This document shows positions 6,685 to 61,753 of a stretch of 64,000 bases of DNA, one piece after another. The DNA is taken from sequence record OR437326.1; one strand, written 5' to 3'. Position numbers and translations under genes: made by a program. Under the pieces are notes generated by a model. It was not told the DNA's origin and ran no database searches. It was given only the letters and a program-made list of their open reading frames with translations. Source of the DNA: Escherichia phage iGC_PHA_EC001. The stretch's first letter is position 1, and the number at the start of each line of letters is the position of its first letter.

Positions 6685-7077
6685 ATGAATCTAAAGACTA
6701 AAACTGTATTGAGTTTTGTTTTAATTGTTGTTCTTATTCTTGCCGGAATGTTTGCTTATAACAAGATACGTGAGTCTGGCTACAAAGATGGTGTTGCCTA
6801 TCAAACGCAAGTATATCAAACAGCCCAAGCAAAAGCAAAACAAGATTTTGATGTTCTTCAAAAAAGAGCAGATGAAGAAAGAGCATTATTAAATACTCAA
6901 ATAAACAACTTGTCTAAAAACAATGCACAATTAAAAGCAGATTTAGAGAAGAAGAAACAAACGATCAATGAGGATACAACGAATTATGCAAAAACTAATT
7001 CTGGCAGTATGTCTTGCTTTGCCCCTAATGATGACGGGTTGTTCATCATCAACAAAAGTTTCCCCAGTTCTTATTGA
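6685..7077 (+). CDS. i-spanin (Rz-like inner-membrane spanin subunit)
   Basis: N-terminal transmembrane helix (VLSFVLIVVLILAGMFAY) then long coiled-coil periplasmic domain; o-spanin gene overlaps its 3' end in another frame. Confidence 0.6.
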   Translation: MNLKTKTVLSFVLIVVLILAGMFAYNKIRESGYKDGVAYQTQVYQTAQAKAKQDFDVLQKRADEERALLNTQINNLSKNNAQLKADLEKKKQTINEDTTNYAKTNSGSMSCFAPNDDGLFIINKSFPSSY

Positions 7078-7312
7078 TGAGTGTAAGGCTGTAGCCATAG
7101 AAAAGGTTAAAGGTCCAGATTCGGACTTGATGGATAAAGTATCGACACCTGTGCCATACACTAAAAATCAAATTGCAAAAGGGGTTAGTAGATCTGAAGT
7201 TGTTAACAACCAAACTCAAAACAATGCTCTTTGGGAGCAAGATAGACGAAAGGTTCTAGGTTTACAAACATATATTAAAACACTGCAAGAAAAAGGTATT
7301 ATTGCTGAATAA
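6968..7312 (+). CDS. o-spanin (Rz1-like outer-membrane lipoprotein); start may be ATG at 6986
   Basis: Signal peptide plus lipobox (LALPLMMTG|C), Pro-containing mature part with a second Cys; begins inside i-spanin gene in a different frame. Confidence 0.55.
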   Translation: MRIQRIMQKLILAVCLALPLMMTGCSSSTKVSPVLIDECKAVAIEKVKGPDSDLMDKVSTPVPYTKNQIAKGVSRSEVVNNQTQNNALWEQDRRKVLGLQTYIKTLQEKGIIAE

Positions 7313-7321
7313 GGAGGGAAT

Positions 7322-9397
7322 GTGGCAAAGAAAAAGGCAGCAGGTAGTTTAGCTGGAGTAGATATTGAAGTAAAGGCTCAACCAGGTAAACAGACTCTTG
7401 CAATGGATTTAATGCCAGAAGTTATGATTTATGGTGGTGCCGCTGGATGTGTTTCTGCTGAAACGGAATATCTTACAAAAGATGGTTGGAGGCAGATTAG
7501 TGAATATTCGGGAGAGGATATTTACCAATACAATCCTAAGAATAAGCGTTTAGAATTGGTAACACCTTATTTTGTAGAATACGATTTAAATGGAGATAAC
7601 CTATACAGAATAACAAATGGTGTAGGATTATTCCAAGAACTTAGTATGGAACACCGTTTTGTATTCTATAAGAAAAAGAAATCAAAGAAACATTTCGAGA
7701 TTCTTGTAGGAGATCTTATTGCATTACAGCAAATAGGAAAACCCCTGCAAGGTTATGTAGAAAATCCATTCGGTAAACGTGTTCCTTTTAACATACCTGG
7801 TAAAAAGAGCACTTACTTAAAAATACACGAGGTTATTTCAACAGATGATAAGAAATATTGTTTTGAGACTCCAAGCAGCTATATTGTCTTTAGACGTGGC
7901 GATCACTGCTTCGTTACTGGGAATAGCGGCAAGTCTCGTCTGCTATTGCTGAAAGCTTTAAAATACGCCTACAAAGACCCTTTGTTTGGTGGAATACTTT
8001 TCCGTAAGAACACCACTGCTCACCGTAAACCAGGTGGTCTGTTTACAGAAGCAAAACGTTTGTATCTTCCTTTACAACCACACGTAAAAGAAAGTACAAT
8101 GGATATCATTTTTGAAGCCACTGGTGGTGGAACCCTCAAATTTGACCATTTGGAAAATGATAACGTAACAGCAGAAACAAACCATCAGGGTACACAGTAT
8201 TCAATGGTAGGTTTTGACGAGTTAACCCACTTCACACAATATGAAATGCTCTATCTTCTGGGACGTATGCGTTCAGAGTCAGAAACAAGTTTCATGTTGT
8301 GCACATGTAACCCTGACGCAGATAGTTGGGTTTTGAATTGGGTGTTACCTTATCTTGATGAGGGTGGTTATCCTAGAGAAGATATGTGTGGTAAACAAAA
8401 ATATTTCATCATTGTTAACGATGAACCTGTTTTTGCTGACACACCTGAAGAACTGAAAGAAAAATATCCAGAAAACTGTTTCATGGAAAACCCTAATACA
8501 GGGGAGACAGTTGTTATTGAACCACAAACTTTCGTATTTATTGGTGGGACAATATTTGATAACCCAGAACTCATTAGGCTTAACCCTAATTACTTAGCAC
8601 AGCTTAAATCACAAACAGCTATCAAAAGAGCACAGCTTCTGGACGGTTGTTGGTTTGCACGTATCCAGAAAGAATCTTTCTTTCAACGTGAATGGTTACA
8701 TAAAATATCTTATAAAGATGTTCCTAACAATCTTAAACTAATGCGAGCATGGGATAAAGCTGTTTCAGTTCCTACAGAAACTTACCGTTATCCAGACTAT
8801 ACAACATCTGTCAAAATGGGTAAAGATCAAGATGGTAATATCTACATCTTTGGCGACTATGATTATGATGCTGTGGATGAGAAAAGTAAAATTTTCGGAA
8901 GGTTTCGAAGACTACCTGGGGAAAGGGATAACCTGATTCTAAATCAATGTAAGATTGATGGACCAGAAGTTACAGTAGTGCTTCCTAAAGACCCATCTGG
9001 TGCTGGGACAATAGAATACACAGAGTCTGCAAAGAAACTTATTCTAGAAGGTTTTGTTGTTAAACCAGATGCTATGCCAGGTAACAAGAAAAAGCTTCAG
9101 CGTTTTATGCCTTTTAGTAGTGCGTGTCAAAACGGTTTTGTTTATATTGTTGAAGATTCTTTCCCTAATGTGGAAACTTTAACCCACTTTTATAAAGAAT
9201 TGGAATCTTTCAATGGTGAAAGATCTACAGCCACTATTAAAGATGACATTCCCGATGCTGCTGCCTCTTGTTTTAATACTCTGTCAAAAGAGAATACTTT
9301 CAAAGCAGTAGCTATCCCTACAACAACAAATGCTCCTACAGGATACAGTAGAATGAACAGCGGATTTCACCAACCGTATAGTGTCCGTAAAAGATAA
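7322..9397 (+). CDS. terminase large subunit, precursor containing an intein
   Basis: After removing residues 43-201 the junction reads GGAAG|SGKS, a Walker A P-loop; ATPase/nuclease-sized protein directly upstream of portal. Confidence 0.8.
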   Translation: MAKKKAAGSLAGVDIEVKAQPGKQTLAMDLMPEVMIYGGAAGCVSAETEYLTKDGWRQISEYSGEDIYQYNPKNKRLELVTPYFVEYDLNGDNLYRITNGVGLFQELSMEHRFVFYKKKKSKKHFEILVGDLIALQQIGKPLQGYVENPFGKRVPFNIPGKKSTYLKIHEVISTDDKKYCFETPSSYIVFRRGDHCFVTGNSGKSRLLLLKALKYAYKDPLFGGILFRKNTTAHRKPGGLFTEAKRLYLPLQPHVKESTMDIIFEATGGGTLKFDHLENDNVTAETNHQGTQYSMVGFDELTHFTQYEMLYLLGRMRSESETSFMLCTCNPDADSWVLNWVLPYLDEGGYPREDMCGKQKYFIIVNDEPVFADTPEELKEKYPENCFMENPNTGETVVIEPQTFVFIGGTIFDNPELIRLNPNYLAQLKSQTAIKRAQLLDGCWFARIQKESFFQREWLHKISYKDVPNNLKLMRAWDKAVSVPTETYRYPDYTTSVKMGKDQDGNIYIFGDYDYDAVDEKSKIFGRFRRLPGERDNLILNQCKIDGPEVTVVLPKDPSGAGTIEYTESAKKLILEGFVVKPDAMPGNKKKLQRFMPFSSACQNGFVYIVEDSFPNVETLTHFYKELESFNGERSTATIKDDIPDAAASCFNTLSKENTFKAVAIPTTTNAPTGYSRMNSGFHQPYSVRKR
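7448..7924 (+). mobile_element. mini-intein (159 aa) inserted in the terminase Walker A motif
   Basis: Starts Cys (CVSAETEYLTKDGW, Hint block A-like), ends ...HCFVTGN followed by Ser +1; splicing restores GGAAGSGKS; too short for an endonuclease domain. Confidence 0.7.
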
Positions 9398-32987: not shown

Positions 32988-33293
32988 ATGAATAAGATGT
33001 TCACACAGCCCACTGGCCCAGTGGCTAAACAGGTTAATAAACAAGCCATTGCCCGTAAGTTTGGTGTTAAGCAGAATGAAGTAGTCTACTTTGCTGTAGG
33101 TGCTGTACTAAGTGGATATAAGATTATCTATGATAAGGAGACGCAAAGGGCGTATTCCCTACCTGCTGATATTGCCCCAGGTACTACTGCCATTAGTCTT
33201 AGTGCTACTGTACTTGTGCATTCAGCGGGTTCTGTAGACCTTGGGGAATTAGCTGTATATCGTGATTTAAAAAGTAATGAGAACGCACTATGA
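32988..33293 (+). CDS. small protein paralogous to an internal module of tailspike 37617..40670
   Basis: About 70 residues align with residues ~228-300 of the 1017-aa protein (IARKFG...SVDLGELAV vs IARKYG...SVDLSALAV). Confidence 0.45.
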   Translation: MNKMFTQPTGPVAKQVNKQAIARKFGVKQNEVVYFAVGAVLSGYKIIYDKETQRAYSLPADIAPGTTAISLSATVLVHSAGSVDLGELAVYRDLKSNENAL

Positions 33294-33532
33294 GAAAATT
33301 TTTAATAGGTATGTTCTGTACATATCCTGATAATAAAGTCAGTTCTACGAAAGTCTGGAACGCTGTAGGCATGTCGGTTATGACAGGCATGTTTATCTTT
33401 TTAGGAATAGAAAAAGAAATTCCTGAATGGATGGGTTGGGCTTTTGTTTTCATGATAACTCCTTCTCGCCTCATGAAAAATCTTATTGATTTACGCTGGG
33501 GCAGATCACAATCTACCAAAGAGGATGACTAA
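33290..33532 (+). CDS. putative holin (class II-like, two transmembrane segments)
   Basis: 80 aa with two hydrophobic stretches and a charged C-terminal tail (KNLIDLRWGRSQSTKEDD). Confidence 0.35.
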   Translation: MRKFLIGMFCTYPDNKVSSTKVWNAVGMSVMTGMFIFLGIEKEIPEWMGWAFVFMITPSRLMKNLIDLRWGRSQSTKEDD

Positions 33533-37277: not shown

Positions 37278-37613
37278 ATGGAATTTCAAGAAGCATGGGG
37301 ACTTGCAAAGGATGCAATAATCCCTTTAATCGGAGTCATCTGGTTCTTTTTCAAACAAAAAATGGATAAATTCGGCTCTGATCTTGAGGAAATGGAGGAG
37401 AAAAGTCGAGAGCTAGAGAAGAAGTTGGTCTTTGTTGAATCAACTTATGCAACTAAAGCCGAACTTACCCAGATGCTAAATCAAATTAACTCTACATTAA
37501 TGGCAAATAATAACACCCTTGAGCAAAAAATTGAAAAGATTATGGACCTCAAGAATGCGACTATCCAAATGATGCTAGATGACATAGTTAAACGTACACA
37601 GAATAAGGGGTAA
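37278..37613 (+). CDS. small membrane-anchored coiled-coil protein (111 aa)
   Basis: N-terminal hydrophobic helix AIIPLIGVIWFFF followed by charged helical region. Confidence 0.4.
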   Translation: MEFQEAWGLAKDAIIPLIGVIWFFFKQKMDKFGSDLEEMEEKSRELEKKLVFVESTYATKAELTQMLNQINSTLMANNNTLEQKIEKIMDLKNATIQMMLDDIVKRTQNKG

Positions 37614-48648: not shown

Positions 48649-51600
48649 TCAATGACATGTGGCCCAAGAGTTACCCACATCATATCCGGCAGTAAGCTGA
48701 ACGTTAAGATTGTAAAATTCTCCAGCCTTAGTAACAGCTAAAGCAGCAAGTTCTCCTGCCCGACTATAAGCTGTAAACCATCCACCTTTGGGAGATTCAT
48801 GAATGTTAGCCCAAATTTGTCCCGTTTCTTTTTCCTTATTATGCTTCCATTCTTCAACTTTAGCAAGGCATTCTTTATCAATTTTCTTTTGTTCTTCGGG
48901 ATCGTCTACTTTCTTCCAACCTAATGATTCAGGTGAAAACCATTTAAATTCTACAAGGTTACGAGAAACTTCAAGCTGGGCTTCATCGTGATATGCAATC
49001 ATTTGTTGCACGAAATCTTTATTCTTCCAGTCATCTTTAAAGAAGTCAACACTTAGTCCTTCTTCTTCGATCATGTCGTCATAAATAACCATTGCACGTT
49101 TAGCACAGATAACCCCACCACTTTGGAACAGAGAGTTAAGAATCGCGTGAGCAGAACGAGTAGGAACCTTACGACCGTCAATACCCAAAACATATTGTTT
49201 ACCAGTCTTAACCCAAAAATCGTTTAAACGTTCTTTAAGACGCGCCAATGGGAATGCAGCTTCCCAGAAAGCATCAAACACCAATTGACCTGTAAACTTA
49301 TCGCTACCAATTGTTTTAGCAACCTTGTCGGCTTGTGCACCATAGGTAATACCATACTTAACAGATTTAGCAGGACTACGTTCAAATTTACGTCCAATAG
49401 TTTCAGTAATACGTTTTGCCATCATTGTGTGAACATCATTAGGTTTCTCTAACAACAGAGCGTTACAATACTCGTGTGGCTCCGGCTCGTACCGCCAACA
49501 GTTTCCTGTGATGGTAATGCAGTCTTTCTGACGCATGACCCACGTACCAAGTTCTGTTTGTGGACACCAAACATCCTCTACACCCCACTCTTCAATAGTC
49601 AAACTTTGAACAGGAATGTGAGAGCGGTTAGTCAATGTTGCCACTTTTACTTTCTGCTCTTTTGTATTGAAAGCTACAGAGATATTGCCTCCATGCACCA
49701 GGTACGAGGCAGTTAAAGCTGCTTCAAAAAGTTCACCTGGGTTCTGCGCCCAACGCCAAACAGGTTTTTGTTTATGTTCGTGCCAGTAACCATCTGCAAT
49801 CAAGAAACCTTCCAAGAAAGCTACACGCTCGGCATGAGACATATTAACTACACGTTCTACCCACGGAACATCCCATTTACCTTGTTGAACAGAAGTTAAA
49901 CTATTTACCTGATCTTGTTCCATGTTAAATGGAGCATTACAAATAATGTTATCTCCTGTGCAAAGCTCGGCAGTTGTTCTGACTTTAGGCACATAAGTAT
50001 TCCCTTTACTACGGGTATTAACATACCAACGGTGATCTGCTGTTGCACGGTAAGTGTGTGATTTCCCTTTAATCTCAAACGTCTTACTATTTTTATAGAA
50101 GACCTTACCTTTTACTTTAGTCCATTCTTTCAGACCTGTTTCAGCATTGTACCCTAAAATCTCATCCCCTTCCTTCAGGTCGTGATATCCTACCCAACCT
50201 TTACGAGTCAAAGCTTGAGCATCCATCGGCACACAGTAGTGTGATTCAATTTTTGCTTCCAAAGAGTCGAAGTCGTAGCCGATCTGGAAGTATTTAGGAA
50301 CCTCTACACCAAACAAGTTACGCATCTCCCACCCAAACAAAGATGTGACACGAGGAATATTAGCTACAGATCTATGCTTCATACGAGAGGTTGCAGCATC
50401 ACATGTAGCGGCTGGGGTAGGAATACGCCCATCCGCCCTTACTGCGGCTAAGAAACCTTTATCGTATTCTTGATCTTCTTCATCTTCTTCCCAATCAGCA
50501 CCGCCACCTAAAATAGAGTTCCTACGATGCTTATACGTTAAGTATTCTACAATCTGTGTAGCATAAGGAAACTTCTCACTCAAAGCTTGCAGGTTAGGAC
50601 AAATTTCTTTTTCCTGACCTTTGGTAAAACACGGGTTAGTCAATACTTTAAGACCGCGACCTTTACCTTTTGCTATACGCTCTTGAATCTTCCTTTCCAG
50701 GGTTTCCGGTGTGCACTCCAGATGATCACAACGATCCTGACAAAAATTAGAAGATAGAGTTTGCTCAACGTAAGCTCGGATACCTTTCTGAAGTTCTTCC
50801 TCGCTCTTTTTAATCTTGGTGCCAGATTTAAGAGTCAAGTCTTTATCTTTATATTCAGACGGTACCCAACCTAATCCTACAAGCCAGTTTTTAATATGGG
50901 TTGTATCGTTTAATGTTGCAGGAATGTTAGGATCACATAGAGGTTCATCTGCTGCAACTGGCAGTTTCCACTCTTTCCCCAACATAACTAACCACCAATC
51001 GCCATCCCTCTCTTCCAAATGACCATCATGTTTCTTAGCAAAATTGATCATATGGTTAGTTGGCTCTAAGTTCTTTTTAATTTGCAACTTAGGTGGAATA
51101 AAAGCCTTAAGATAACCTTTTGTTGCTGGTTTAGGTGGCAAAATAGGCTCAACGAGTAAACGAAGACGCTCCATTTCTGCATCCAAAAAAGCAAGGTTCT
51201 CTTCTGCTTGTTTCATGTTAAAAGCAAACCCACGGTGTTCCTGGCGTGTAATAATGTCTGCTACACGTTGTTCAAGTTCAAATGGACCTTCCCATTTATC
51301 ATAATCACCCCATTCTTCCATAAGGTAATTATATACACTTGTATTGGCTTTGTTGTCATAGATACAGTAATAAAGCATATCCGCAGCAAAAGTCTTAAAT
51401 CGATCTTCTTCTGGAATCTCTTTACGGAAATCTATTTTTACATCACCACCTGCTTTTCGAGAAAGTGCTGCCAAACTATGTCCTGATTTGCCCTCAATCT
51501 TTCGATCTGGGTTTAACACTTTACTCAAAATCAAGGAGTCAATAAGTTTTACCTTATTTTTGCCCCACGTATTATATTTAACACTGTAATCTAATCCATA

Positions 51601-58539: not shown

Positions 58540-58731
58540 TTAACTGTCAGCTACAATCCCACGTTTAATCATTTCTTGTTGAATCTGGATCACACGATCT
58601 CGTGCTTCCATATATTCTTTAAAAGATTCTTGGAGATGGTCACGGGCTACGTCCCGTAGTTTAATCAGTTTGTCGTTTGTCACTTCTTGAAGAGAGATCT
58701 CGCCAGTTTCATTGGTCCCAAGCGTTTTCAT
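58540..58731 (-). CDS. hypothetical protein (63 aa)
   Basis: ORF track. Confidence 0.35.
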   Translation of the reverse strand: MKTLGTNETGEISLQEVTNDKLIKLRDVARDHLQESFKEYMEARDRVIQIQQEMIKRGIVADS

Positions 58732-58987
58732 TTACAACCTCCTTAATAGCTACTGCACAGTTCTTACAAATACATTGACCTTTGTTCTTAGAAATTTCAA
58801 TGTAAGGTTCATTTTCGTTTTCTCCGCGTCGTGAGTCGTATATTACTGTATTGAAGCAGACAACGCAAATGTTTTTAATAACGACATATTTTTGCACTTT
58901 CTGTTTAGTGCGAAAATTGACTTCAATGACTTCTCCCATCAATGAATCTCCCCTAAAATGTTGTTTTGAGACATTACTGCGGAGCAT
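58709..58987 (-). CDS. small Cys-rich zinc-ribbon protein (92 aa)
   Basis: CVVC ... CICKNC pattern. Confidence 0.35.
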   Translation of the reverse strand: MLRSNVSKQHFRGDSLMGEVIEVNFRTKQKVQKYVVIKNICVVCFNTVIYDSRRGENENEPYIEISKNKGQCICKNCAVAIKEVVNENAWDQ

Positions 58988-59223
58988 TCTACAGCATCAT
59001 GAGTCCTTGCAAAACGCTCCCACAACACAGCATCTACTTTAAGAACCATACAAGGATAAATACTGTCGTTGATCATATCAATGCTATATTTATCTACATC
59101 CTTTTCATCTTCCATAAACAAAGTAGCGTATGCTTCTAAATGCTTACGGGTGTAGTATACATCCTCTTCAGTAAGACCGACAACCAGGTAACTTGCTACA
59201 ACAACAGTATTATCTTCTTGCAT
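58939..59223 (-). CDS. hypothetical protein (94 aa, start trimmed)
   Basis: ATG at 59223 with GGAG upstream, immediately after stop of upstream gene; track start 59286 lies inside that gene. Confidence 0.35.
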   Translation of the reverse strand: MQEDNTVVVASYLVVGLTEEDVYYTRKHLEAYATLFMEDEKDVDKYSIDMINDSIYPCMVLKVDAVLWERFARTHDAVECSAVMSQNNILGEIH

Positions 59224-59224
59224 T

Positions 59225-59746
59225 TTAACTCCCCTTTGGTAGATAGAAACCATGCACTTTATCTCGATAAACAAGACGCATATCACGTTCCCAGTGTGTC
59301 CTTATATTCCGTTTCTTGAAGTATAGAGCACCTTTAGTAACATCTAAAACAGACCGCAATTCAGGAAAATGTTTCTCTAAATAAAGTAAACGCTCCGCTA
59401 TTGCTTTTGCTTCCTGCCACTTATCTTTCTCTGTTACGTTAAAAGTTTTCGCATATGAGAATTGTCCTTTCTGGAACAAGACTCCTCTGACTGTGTTAGG
59501 GAAGTAGGTATCATTTCTTCTGTTGATTACCACATTCCCAACGGCATTCATTCCTTTTTTACCCAGACCGCGACCTTCTGCGTAAATTGCACAAGCTAAT
59601 AGAATTTTATCATTATATTGCTTTGTACATTTGTGAACTACTTTAGCGGTTTTTACGTTTGCAGCTTCGGCTTTCGCCACAACAGGTGTAAATGTAAAAG
59701 CAGTTAAGGATAGTAACGCAACTGTTACAAAGTTTTTTATCAGCAA
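59225..59746 (-). CDS. secreted cell-wall hydrolase (SleB / Hydrolase_2-like), candidate signal-peptide endolysin
   Basis: N-terminal signal peptide ending AKAEA; core ILLACAIYAEGRG...GMNAVGNVVINRRND..FPNTVRGVLFQKGQFS matches the SleB-type hydrolase signature. Confidence 0.55.
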   Translation of the reverse strand: MLIKNFVTVALLSLTAFTFTPVVAKAEAANVKTAKVVHKCTKQYNDKILLACAIYAEGRGLGKKGMNAVGNVVINRRNDTYFPNTVRGVLFQKGQFSYAKTFNVTEKDKWQEAKAIAERLLYLEKHFPELRSVLDVTKGALYFKKRNIRTHWERDMRLVYRDKVHGFYLPKGS

Positions 59747-59845: not shown

Positions 59846-60448
59846 TTATGGACATTCATACCATTCTTTTTTACCACCGAAGGCCATCACCACATCACAA
59901 ATATCCAGACCAGCTTTACCTACACCATATGCTTTCAGCTTCCATTCCCCATCTTCACGAACCAAGGAAGCCACGTGGCAGATTGTGTTGCCAGCTACTT
60001 CAGGAGCCAGGAAGTCAAAATCCAGAATTTCCACATTGCGCTCGGAGTCGAAGATTTTAAGCATACCTTCAGAAGCATGACCAAAACGTTTCAGACCTGT
60101 ATCATCATCAATGGTCAGAACAAAGGCAATCTCTTGTGCATCAGGAGAGATTTTAGCCAGAGTAATATCAATCTGCTCCATGCTGCCAGTTCCATCACGA
60201 ACATCGTCACCAGCGAAGGTAGAACGTTCAGGATCAAACTTGTTAGCATAGCAAACCAGATGACGTGCAGACAGCATTTCAGGATTACCAGCGGCATTGT
60301 GACGACAAACCAGTGCACTTACATCCAGATCCAGTTTAGAATCAGATTTCCAAGAGAATTCCAGGCGCAGTTCTTTCAGAGCCGGAGCAACTTTCTTCAG
60401 GGAAATTTTTTCGCTAGAGCCTTTTTTCAGGGAAATTTTATCAGTCAT
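59846..60448 (-). CDS. TerD-family protein
   Basis: Tandem ISLKKG...ISLKK N-terminal repeats, DLDVSALV, GDDVRDGTG acidic metal-binding-like loop, IAFVLTI, EDGEWKLKAYGVG all parallel E. coli TerD. Confidence 0.7.
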   Translation of the reverse strand: MTDKISLKKGSSEKISLKKVAPALKELRLEFSWKSDSKLDLDVSALVCRHNAAGNPEMLSARHLVCYANKFDPERSTFAGDDVRDGTGSMEQIDITLAKISPDAQEIAFVLTIDDDTGLKRFGHASEGMLKIFDSERNVEILDFDFLAPEVAGNTICHVASLVREDGEWKLKAYGVGKAGLDICDVVMAFGGKKEWYECP

Positions 60449-60733: not shown

Positions 60734-60962
60734 TTCTTCCTCCTAATGTTATCTCCGGTTTGTATATACGAAGAATTATAGCATTTTCATTTTCTTTGTC
60801 AACCCATTCTTCATAATCGGGCCATACATGAATCTCTACTCTACTTACAATATCTTCCATTCGCACAGTCCCAATGAAATACTCTTTGAGACTGCGCATA
60901 ATGAAAGCTTCTCTCTCGCGCCAATAATTTTCTATGACTTGAGAGGCAAGCTCGTCGATCAT
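60714..60962 (-). CDS. hypothetical protein (82 aa)
   Basis: ORF track. Confidence 0.35.
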   Translation of the reverse strand: MIDELASQVIENYWREREAFIMRSLKEYFIGTVRMEDIVSRVEIHVWPDYEEWVDKENENAIILRIYKPEITLGGRSVKLRN

Positions 60963-61753
60963 TTTTTAGCACCCACTTTAACAACCCACTCTCCGAACTC
61001 TTCAGATAAGAGTTTGTCATAAAGCTCTGAATCTGTCAAGTCTAAATCTTTAATGCCAATAAAACCAACATTATCATAAGCATTTGCCAGTTCTTTCAGG
61101 AAGCCAAACTTCTCATTACCAACGCCAACCATGAACCAATAAATAGGTTTATTCTTATTCTCTTCGATAAGACGACGAACAGCACTAGGATCACCATTCT
61201 CACCATCCGTCTGGAAGAATACAACACTAGGGGTAACGTCAGCACCTGGTTCAGATACAGCTACAACTTTTTCACGCTCTACAGACACTGTTTCAGTTTT
61301 ACCAAGCAGACGATTAAAGAAGCCTTTCTTTGGAGCCTCCTCTTGTACCACTTGTTTAGTGGTAATATATTTAGTAACAGTGCCAAAATACTCATCGTAG
61401 ATATCCGCCATTACAGGGGCGTAATTTGTTCCACCTCCGATACGAACATTACGCATACATTTACCAACATAGTCATCGTAAACATCTGCTGTTGCTGGAG
61501 TAAGCTCTTGGGAACTCGTATTGAAGGCCCACATATCAATTTGTTGATTATCGTCGAACAGCATACCAAAAGGAAGCAGTTTACCTACAAAATCACTCAC
61601 TACCCCACTAGAATATAGACCATGCATACTACCAGAAATATCTAGAGCACATGCTACACGAAGAACAATCTTACCTTCATTCAGGTTCTTATTCTTTTTC
61701 AGAGAGAAAGCAAGGTTTTCTTGACGTTTTTTCAGGCTGATTTTCTCGGACAT
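60959..61753 (-). CDS. von Willebrand factor A domain protein (TerY-like) with TerD-type N-terminal repeat
   Basis: MIDAS motif in ACALDISGSMHG (DxSxS); N-terminus MSEKISLKK echoes the TerD N-terminus. Confidence 0.55.
   Translation of the reverse strand: MSEKISLKKRQENLAFSLKKNKNLNEGKIVLRVACALDISGSMHGLYSSGVVSDFVGKLLPFGMLFDDNQQIDMWAFNTSSQELTPATADVYDDYVGKCMRNVRIGGGTNYAPVMADIYDEYFGTVTKYITTKQVVQEEAPKKGFFNRLLGKTETVSVEREKVVAVSEPGADVTPSVVFFQTDGENGDPSAVRRLIEENKNKPIYWFMVGVGNEKFGFLKELANAYDNVGFIGIKDLDLTDSELYDKLLSEEFGEWVVKVGAKK

Follow-up and report, generated by a model that had tools for sequence, protein, structure and literature searches.

Two genes overlap on the same strand immediately ahead of the terminase large subunit gene in the phage DNA analyzed here, with neither a holin nor an endolysin gene beside them. 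Do they encode the two subunits of a spanin and, if so, which proteins would act with them in lysis? We addressed these questions in 64 kb (hereafter, the window) out of a genome of ~150 kb. The best explanation, in which we have high confidence, is that positions 6685-7312 encode a two-component spanin of the phAPEC8/phi92 family, that its partner is most likely a lysozyme encoded outside the window, and that the lysis genes are scattered in a T4-like manner.

A 3.5-kb query around the spanin locus could be aligned for the greater part with 62 phage genomes (95-99.7% identity), and several sequenced phages reached 99.7%. All 62 belong to Phapecoctavirus (phAPEC8-like, Stephanstirmvirinae; e.g. 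Mt1B1_P17, ESCO37 and nieznany). Judged by these matches, the window is part of a Phapecoctavirus genome, that of a phAPEC8-like E. coli myovirus, with its position 1 corresponding approximately to position 51221 of the ESCO37 record. Its + strand carries the packaging/head/tail block and its - strand a portion of the replication region; a cluster of 10 tRNA genes is also present. The spanin genes stand at the head of the packaging/structural block. For comparison, we used 64 close-relative records of at least 95% identity (for the lysozyme count), four divergent relatives (phiWec186, the Klebsiella phages phi1_175008 and 05F01, and the phi92-like BASEL phage EmilieFrey), and the complete-genome annotations of ETEC-TG (pharokka-style, PHROG-based) and EmilieFrey (curated by hand, BASEL), which were read through.

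An overlapping gene pair ahead of the terminase

The locus comprises the following features:

6373-6394, + strand: terminator-like hairpin and U-run, 5′ of the spanin/terminase unit (fold -12.3 kcal/mol, z = -2.1)
6685-7077, + strand: i-spanin gene, 130 aa (ORF, PHROG 4297 match, near-identity to phAPEC8 gp121)
6703-6759 (approximate), + strand: i-spanin transmembrane helix, residues ~7-25, VLSFVLIVVLILAGMFAY (Kyte-Doolittle; boundaries estimated)
6968-7312, + strand, +1 frame relative to the i-spanin: o-spanin gene, longest ORF 114 aa (ORF, PHROG 1267, phAPEC8_00146)
6986-7077, + strand: dual-coding stretch, encoding the i-spanin C-terminus and, in the +1 frame, the o-spanin signal peptide and lipobox
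7025-7042, + strand: lipobox L-M-M-T-G-C, with the Cys codon at 7040-7042 (read off the sequence)
7322-9397, + strand: terminase large subunit (PHROG 979 at 1.4e-216; Pfam Terminase_6N)

The product of the upstream gene matches PHROG 4297, labelled 'Rz-like spanin' (4.9e-35), and near its N-terminus a single segment is strongly hydrophobic (Kyte-Doolittle maximum 2.99 with a 17-residue scan window). AlphaFold (AF2) models of both spanins were built from single sequences. For the i-spanin, the model is a single continuous helix from residue 3 to residue 104 (pLDDT ~90), with the tail beyond it at low confidence; a coiled coil has been predicted at residues 42-106 of the phAPEC8 i-spanin (PMC6139136). 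The C-terminal tail is conserved, with C111 invariant in five homologues, and the whole protein is 37-55% identical to those of the four divergent relatives. An N-terminal transmembrane helix followed by a largely helical periplasmic domain is the arrangement expected of the i-spanin in a two-component system.

The product of the downstream gene matches PHROG 1267, also labelled 'Rz-like spanin' (8.7e-21). Besides PHROG 4297, the Rz-like PHROGs matched by the pair are 8821, 1403, 739 and 1267, and neither protein scored above threshold against any Pfam or NCBIfam model. The conserved o-spanin start appears to be the ATG at 6986, which gives a protein of 108 aa beginning MQKLILAV, because its lipoprotein homologues all begin with MQK, MRK or MTMKK. 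Counting against this start, the Shine-Dalgarno-like GAGG lies ~12 nt ahead of it, a long spacing. Translation from 6968, which gives the longer form, would likewise yield a valid precursor of a lipoprotein.

Within its context CLALPLMMTGC, the lipobox places the cysteine at residue 19 (from 6986) or 25 (from 6968). This cysteine is the predicted lipidated first residue of the mature o-spanin, which comprises 90 residues. When the 180 window ORFs of at least 60 aa were compared with a PROSITE-style lipobox pattern, the o-spanin ORF alone matched. The Met at the -3 position counts against the assignment, as Leu is commoner there; the Gly-Cys is invariant in five homologues, and the lipobox is kept in the four relatives. 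Residues +2 and +3 are Ser-Ser, without Asp, which is consistent with sorting to the outer membrane; the protein thus combines a lipoprotein signal with the lack of a +2 Asp retention signal, as expected of an o-spanin. It is 53-71% identical to its counterparts in the four divergent relatives, and a second cysteine, the periplasmic C33 (numbered from ATG 6986), is invariant in five homologues. Each subunit therefore carries one invariant periplasmic cysteine, as spanins that form disulfides do; the disulfide itself is a prediction. The AF2 model of the o-spanin contains a helix at residues 69-102 (pLDDT 80-89), with the remainder at low confidence.

In two-component spanins, the o-spanin gene is expected to lie within, overlap or directly follow the i-spanin gene on its strand; here the two ORFs overlap by 110 nt (6968-7077), or by 92 nt counted from ATG 6986; in the four divergent relatives the overlaps are 92-98 nt. 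The overlap is the best-conserved DNA of the locus (mean pairwise identity 0.73, versus 0.47 and 0.62 in the flanks), as expected where a sequence is read in two frames. In all four divergent relatives the overlapped pair lies directly 5′ of the terminase large subunit gene, and the retention of this layout argues that the pair is not a product of chance.

The terminase gene begins 10 nt past the o-spanin stop codon. The insertion in the terminase showed no intein signature in searches of Pfam, NCBIfam and PDB sequences. On the 5′ side lie a 98-aa gene (6027-6323), then the hairpin, which was overlooked by a pattern scan and found by RNA folding and which presumably acts as a terminator, and then two small hydrophilic ORFs (6464-6634 and 6612-6701), the second of which encodes 29 aa and is annotated in relatives. 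No membrane segment was found in either small ORF or in the 98-aa protein. With such ORFs upstream and the terminase downstream, nothing that resembles a holin or endolysin adjoins the spanins, and the window contains no canonical cassette in which both flank them. A sigma-70 promoter scan of the locus returned 13 sites versus 10.2 expected, no better than shuffled sequence. From gene position alone, at the head of the packaging/structural block, we infer that the spanin genes are expressed late and co-transcribed with the terminase.

These results bear out much of the original prediction, which had described an i-spanin with a transmembrane helix and coiled coil at 6685-7077 and an o-spanin with the lipobox LMMTGC at 6968-7312, overlapping by ~110 nt in different frames and lying beside the terminase without an adjacent holin or endolysin.

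The pair has been described before. Kongari et al. 2018 (PMC6139136) group '(phi92, phAPEC8)' in one i-spanin family and one o-spanin family, and their supplementary tables list phAPEC8 gp121 (130 aa) and phAPEC8_00146 (114 aa) as an 'ovl' pair with a 110-nt overlap, the lipobox MMTG and one Cys each. The window i-spanin differs from phAPEC8 gp121 at 1 of 130 residues, and the window o-spanin is identical to phAPEC8_00146; identity to a phi92-like phage is 48% for the i-spanin and 66% for the o-spanin. By sequence, the pair thus falls within the phi92/phAPEC8 spanins of Kongari et al. Both the spanin pair and the dispersed lysis layout were already known, and our finding is a re-discovery of a catalogued pair. 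Separation of the spanins from the other lysis genes is normal in phAPEC8-like phages, an ordinary result.

Its practical worth is in correcting annotations in a much-sequenced genus of therapeutic phages. Both genes are labelled as spanins in RefSeq, in several GenBank records and in BASEL, and one or both are 'hypothetical' in many of the 64 near-identical GenBank records. The ESCO37 record begins the o-spanin at MMTGC, by which the signal peptide is lost, and one pharokka-style record leaves out the intact i-spanin ORF. Missed and shortened spanin annotations are a problem described by Kongari et al. (PMC6139136).

A T4-type lysozyme and a SleB-like hydrolase

A 166-aa lysozyme of the T4 e type, without an export signal, is encoded in 64 of the 64 close relatives (98.8-100% identity). 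It matches Pfam Phage_lysozyme (5e-11) and, over the full length, hundreds of T4 lysozyme PDB chains (~1e-48). The gene lies ~25.5 kb upstream of the spanins in these relatives, which corresponds to ~19 kb left of the window start; because it falls outside the window, we infer its presence in this phage from the relatives. The announcement of the Phapecoctavirus iGC_PHA_EC001 reports two 'lytic proteins', phage_lysozyme and Hydrolase_2 (PMC10793346). In EmilieFrey, the lysozyme homologue is annotated 'endolysin' and is encoded between PhoH-like and glutaredoxin genes, and several records misname the free T4-type lysozyme 'baseplate hub + tail lysozyme'.

Comparison with these relatives suggests that the T4 e-type lysozyme is most likely the murein-degrading partner of the spanins. 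Without an export signal, it needs a hole-forming holin. Its gene is solitary, with a 49-aa upstream neighbor that is highly charged and not membrane-bound. The relatives, then, encode a scattered set of the T4 type, with a cytoplasmic e-type lysozyme away from the spanins. A canonical lysis cassette elsewhere in the genome, which the original prediction had named as evidence that would speak against it, was sought in the complete annotations of ETEC-TG and EmilieFrey; none was found, and the lysozyme gene does not lie in a cassette either.

The window encodes a second type of murein hydrolase:

59225-59746, - strand: cell-wall hydrolase of the SleB-like (Hydrolase_2) type; its N-terminus, ending ...PVVAKA/EA, is of the Sec type (PF07486)

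The Hydrolase_2 domain is clear (PF07486 at 1.9e-17; score 64 bits, cut-off 27), and the protein also matches the SleB structures 4f55 and 4fet (3.6e-7). A YAEGRG motif is present, and Thr, Ser and Ala abound in the N-terminal export signal. In EmilieFrey, the corresponding gene is left hypothetical. The window gene is transcribed in the opposite direction to the late block, and its surroundings are replication, glycosyltransferase and TerD genes. SleB-like homologues occur in rV5-like and T5-like phages; for an rV5-like phage with such a homologue, a lysozyme-type endolysin has been characterized. T5-like phages use a separate peptidase endolysin. Because its homologues are found in phages with other endolysins, and because of its gene context on the other strand, we regard the SleB-like protein as probably a second, accessory murein hydrolase, and it is unlikely to be the principal endolysin. 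The choice of this protein as the best endolysin candidate in the original prediction is therefore probably wrong, given a T4 e-type lysozyme in all 64 close relatives.

Holin candidates

Two small membrane proteins encoded in the window deserve consideration as holins:

33290-33532, + strand: holin candidate of 80 aa, a membrane protein in which two hydrophobic segments precede a charged C-terminus (PHROG 1322)
37278-37613, + strand: protein of 111 aa, membrane helix at the N-terminus, C-terminal part helical and coiled-coil-like (PHROG 15210)

In the first of these, segment 1, which clears the hydrophobicity threshold (1.61), is weakly hydrophobic and rich in Gly, Ser and Thr; inspection by eye suggested segment 2, WMGWAFVFMITP, and a charged tail. 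The resulting topology is plausibly that of a class II holin. The protein matches PHROG 1322, 'membrane protein', alone, and searches of Pfam and NCBIfam gave no match to it; no holin family was matched. In 371 phage records its homologues occupy the same tail-module position, and the label holin appeared in none of 50 sampled records. The gene itself lies between tail genes, with neither an adjacent endolysin gene nor holin homology.

The second, directly 3′ of the tail-fibre chaperone gene, is a candidate for an alternative holin or lysis regulator on the strength of its sequence features and position. PHROG 15210 is labelled 'lipoprotein', yet the protein contains no Cys. It has a weak match to a spanin PHROG (1.2e-3), and its family is found in 135 records, which nearly coincide with the 133 of the i-spanin. 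No resemblance to a holin family was detected.

Several other proteins were considered and set aside. Neither a homologue of the T4 holin T nor a member of any other known holin family was found in the complete relatives, the PHROG-based annotation included. A hydrophobicity scan of a whole relative genome returned ~10 more small membrane proteins; the function of all their PHROGs is unknown, and no holin family is among them. The product of the ETEC-TG gene annotated as 'hol-like chemotaxis' is soluble, forms a coiled coil and has no membrane segment. Directly downstream of the SleB-like gene, the ORFs at 58939-59286 and 58709-58987 are of marginal hydrophobicity and lack a Pfam match.

The sister genus presents a similar picture. 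In the Justusliebigvirus BME3, which encodes two hydrolases and a spanin from two genes, the holin is not located ahead of the endolysin, proteins encoded near the endolysins lack membrane domains, and two distant proteins of 61 and 81 residues are class II holin look-alikes (PMC12210895).

The strongest competitor to our explanation takes the SleB-like protein, Sec-exported or of the SAR type, as the endolysin and the 33290-33532 product as its holin or pinholin, which together with the spanins would make a complete, scattered system inside the window. The hydrolase domain, the YAEGRG motif and the export signal are real enough, and several annotations do say 'endolysin'. However, every close relative encodes a full-length T4 e orthologue, the SleB-like homologues of rV5- and T5-like phages coexist with other endolysins, and the gene is not on the late-block strand but in a region of replication, glycosyltransferase and TerD functions, where neither neighboring ORF has a convincing membrane helix. 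As for the holin, the Gly/Ser/Thr-rich first segment, the second segment and the charged C-terminus do recall pinholins, and an 81-residue class II holin candidate is named in the sister-genus paper (PMC12210895); against this stand the lack of any holin family match and the fixed place in the tail module. On balance, we consider such a self-contained system improbable. The dispersal of lysis functions claimed in the original prediction was right in spirit, as the genes are indeed scattered, but was built on what is probably the wrong endolysin and on an unproven holin.

There may also be a small chance that the Stephanstirmvirinae have an undescribed holin family, represented by 33290-33532 or 37278-37613, together with two hydrolases that take different routes and feed into one spanin pair. 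Of these routes, that of the lysozyme would be cytoplasmic and holin-dependent, and that of the SleB-like protein would be Sec export. For the engineering of lysis timing in phage therapy, it matters which protein is the holin, and what the SleB-like protein does, in rV5-, phi92- and phAPEC8-like phages.

Proposed mechanism and comparison with known spanins

Returning to a phAPEC8/phi92-family spanin served by a T4-type lysozyme, we propose the following mechanism, in which the topology signals, gene architecture and conservation come from this analysis and the remainder is modelled on lambda Rz/Rz1 and T4 PseT.3/PseT.2. The genes would presumably be expressed late. The i-spanin would be anchored by its N-terminal helix in the inner membrane, with its long helical domain extending into the periplasm. 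The o-spanin would be translated from the internal start in the +1 frame and, once lipidated at its Cys, would reside in the inner leaflet of the outer membrane. Each subunit would probably homodimerize by way of a disulfide at its one conserved periplasmic Cys, and binding between the C-terminal regions of the i- and o-spanin would create a periplasmic bridge threaded through the murein. Intact murein would keep these bridges in place. Upon triggering of the holin and degradation of the murein by the lysozyme, the bridges would be freed, cluster and collapse, and this collapse would fuse the inner and outer membranes to complete lysis.

That the pair adjoins no lysis gene could also be read as a sign of some other envelope system, such as superinfection exclusion or receptor masking, and phage lipoproteins with exclusion roles do exist (T5 Llp and Cor). 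We consider a role of this kind very unlikely. All of the spanin hallmarks are present, several independent Rz-like PHROGs match, no other spanin candidate is annotated in the two complete relatives, and the T4 spanins are likewise distant from their partners (PMC6139136). That 6968-7312 is an unexpressed chance open frame, as its omission or truncation by some depositors (the ESCO37 start at MMTGC among them) might suggest, has a negligible probability and appears effectively refuted by conservation: the o-spanin is better conserved across the relatives than the i-spanin, 235 nt of its ORF lie outside the overlap, its lipobox is unique among the window ORFs, and it matches a spanin PHROG.

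As a two-component spanin of the phAPEC8/phi92 family, the window pair is closest to that of phAPEC8 itself, which it resembles in the 110-nt overlap and in its place before the terminase; the start that we propose, ATG 6986, is six codons downstream of the one in the table of Kongari et al. With lambda Rz/Rz1 it shares a helical inner-membrane protein, a lipoprotein of the outer membrane whose gene is in the +1 frame, and periplasmic cysteines for disulfides. The two systems differ in that Rz1 is encoded wholly inside Rz, whereas the window genes overlap in part, and in that the lambda pair ends an S-R-Rz cassette, whereas the window pair has no lysis neighbors. Lambda Rz1, with 40 residues when mature, is a short, proline-rich protein that is not helical, whereas the mature o-spanin of the window is 90 residues long, with a helix predicted in its C-terminal part. 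The window pair is not significantly similar in sequence to the lambda spanin family, although weak matches to other Rz-like PHROGs occur.

The T4 system offers a closer parallel. As with PseT.3/PseT.2, whose genes are distant from those of the endolysin (e) and the holin (t), the likely partner is a T4 e-type lysozyme and the lysis genes are scattered in a large virulent myovirus. PseT.2, like the window o-spanin, is a larger protein with a C-terminal helix, which brings the latter closer to PseT.2 than to Rz1. In contrast to the overlapped genes of the window, the T4 spanin genes are separate. The position of 37278-37613 after the tail-fibre chaperone gene recalls that of gene t after gene 38. 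Finally, the layouts reported for BME3 (PMC12210895) and iGC_PHA_EC001 (PMC10793346), in papers that are descriptive, as is our analysis, likewise comprise a two-gene spanin, small distant two-helix proteins of 61 and 81 residues as holin candidates, and two murein hydrolases with no holin beside them.

A split terminase P-loop and the gene upstream of the spanins

In the terminase large subunit, encoded immediately downstream of the spanin pair, the Walker A motif is interrupted by a 159-aa insertion. The small gene just upstream of the spanins and this subunit is listed with it:

7448-7924: 159-aa insertion in the terminase large subunit (7322-9397), residues 43-201
6027-6323: 98-aa protein, PHROG 3330 (function class: unknown)

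Removing the insert re-forms GGAAG|SGKS, which matches GxxxxGKS. The first residue of the insert is Cys and the last is Asn, with Ser the next residue after it; an S-x-x-H block lies within the insert. Judged by these sequence features, it looks like a mini-intein placed in the P-loop. Searches of Pfam, NCBIfam and PDB sequences returned no intein match to it. Whereas the records from Phapecoctavirus, the genus of this phage, align in two pieces, Felixounavirus terminases align in a single piece over the junction, indicating that they lack the insert.

The 98-aa protein has the motif KRGRGRP at its N-terminal end, and its C-terminus is acidic and helical. Because the annotations of the relatives include no small terminase subunit, we speculate that this protein could be a candidate for that subunit.

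Small genes in and near the tail module

Two small products are listed here, first the neighbour of the 80-aa membrane protein (33290-33532), a holin candidate, and then the alternative holin or lysis-regulator candidate itself:

32988-33293: 101-aa ORF, tailspike N-terminal anchor domain only (PHROG 7992 at 1.5e-52)
37278-37613, + strand: 111-aa protein, N-terminal membrane helix and helical C-terminal part

The 101-aa ORF shares its last 4 nt with the start of the gene for the 80-aa membrane protein, and its PHROG 7992 match spans profile positions 328-420. The anchor domain of which it consists is the N-terminal part common to many tailspike proteins. The annotation of the related phage ETEC-TG has no separate ORF at the equivalent position; in BME3, a Justusliebigvirus phage of the sister genus, the tailspike is divided between CDSs of 102 and 552 aa (PMC12210895). 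The ORF may be a remnant or adaptor from tailspike module exchange.

Across the Phapecoctavirus records sampled, the 111-aa protein is 100% conserved, with 64 records at 99% identity or above. PHROG-based pipelines label it 'lipoprotein' despite its having no cysteines.

Hydrolase neighbourhood, lysozyme and public annotations

The exported SleB-like hydrolase is flanked by a TerD-domain protein (Pfam TerD, 3.2e-28) and other stress- or tellurite-resistance-like genes:

59846-60448 and 60959-61753, - strand: TerD-domain protein and further stress- or tellurite-resistance-like genes

In ETEC-TG, a protein annotated as 'tellurite resistance' lies near the same place, as does an annotated membrane protein with 10 helices.

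The top PDB match of the Phapecoctavirus T4-type lysozyme is 7rgr, 'Artificial protein L056' (E = 1.1e-71). Its initial ~71 residues are identical to the phage enzyme, so the designed sequence appears to closely reproduce this natural lysozyme family.

Several public annotations of relatives contain errors. The ESCO37 o-spanin (OM386659.1 58248-58532) is begun at MMTGC, losing its signal peptide, and an intact i-spanin ORF is left unannotated in ETEC-TG (OR786310.1 70084-70476). The free 166-aa lysozyme is often named 'baseplate hub + tail lysozyme' and, in one record, 'tyrosine 2,3-aminomutase'.
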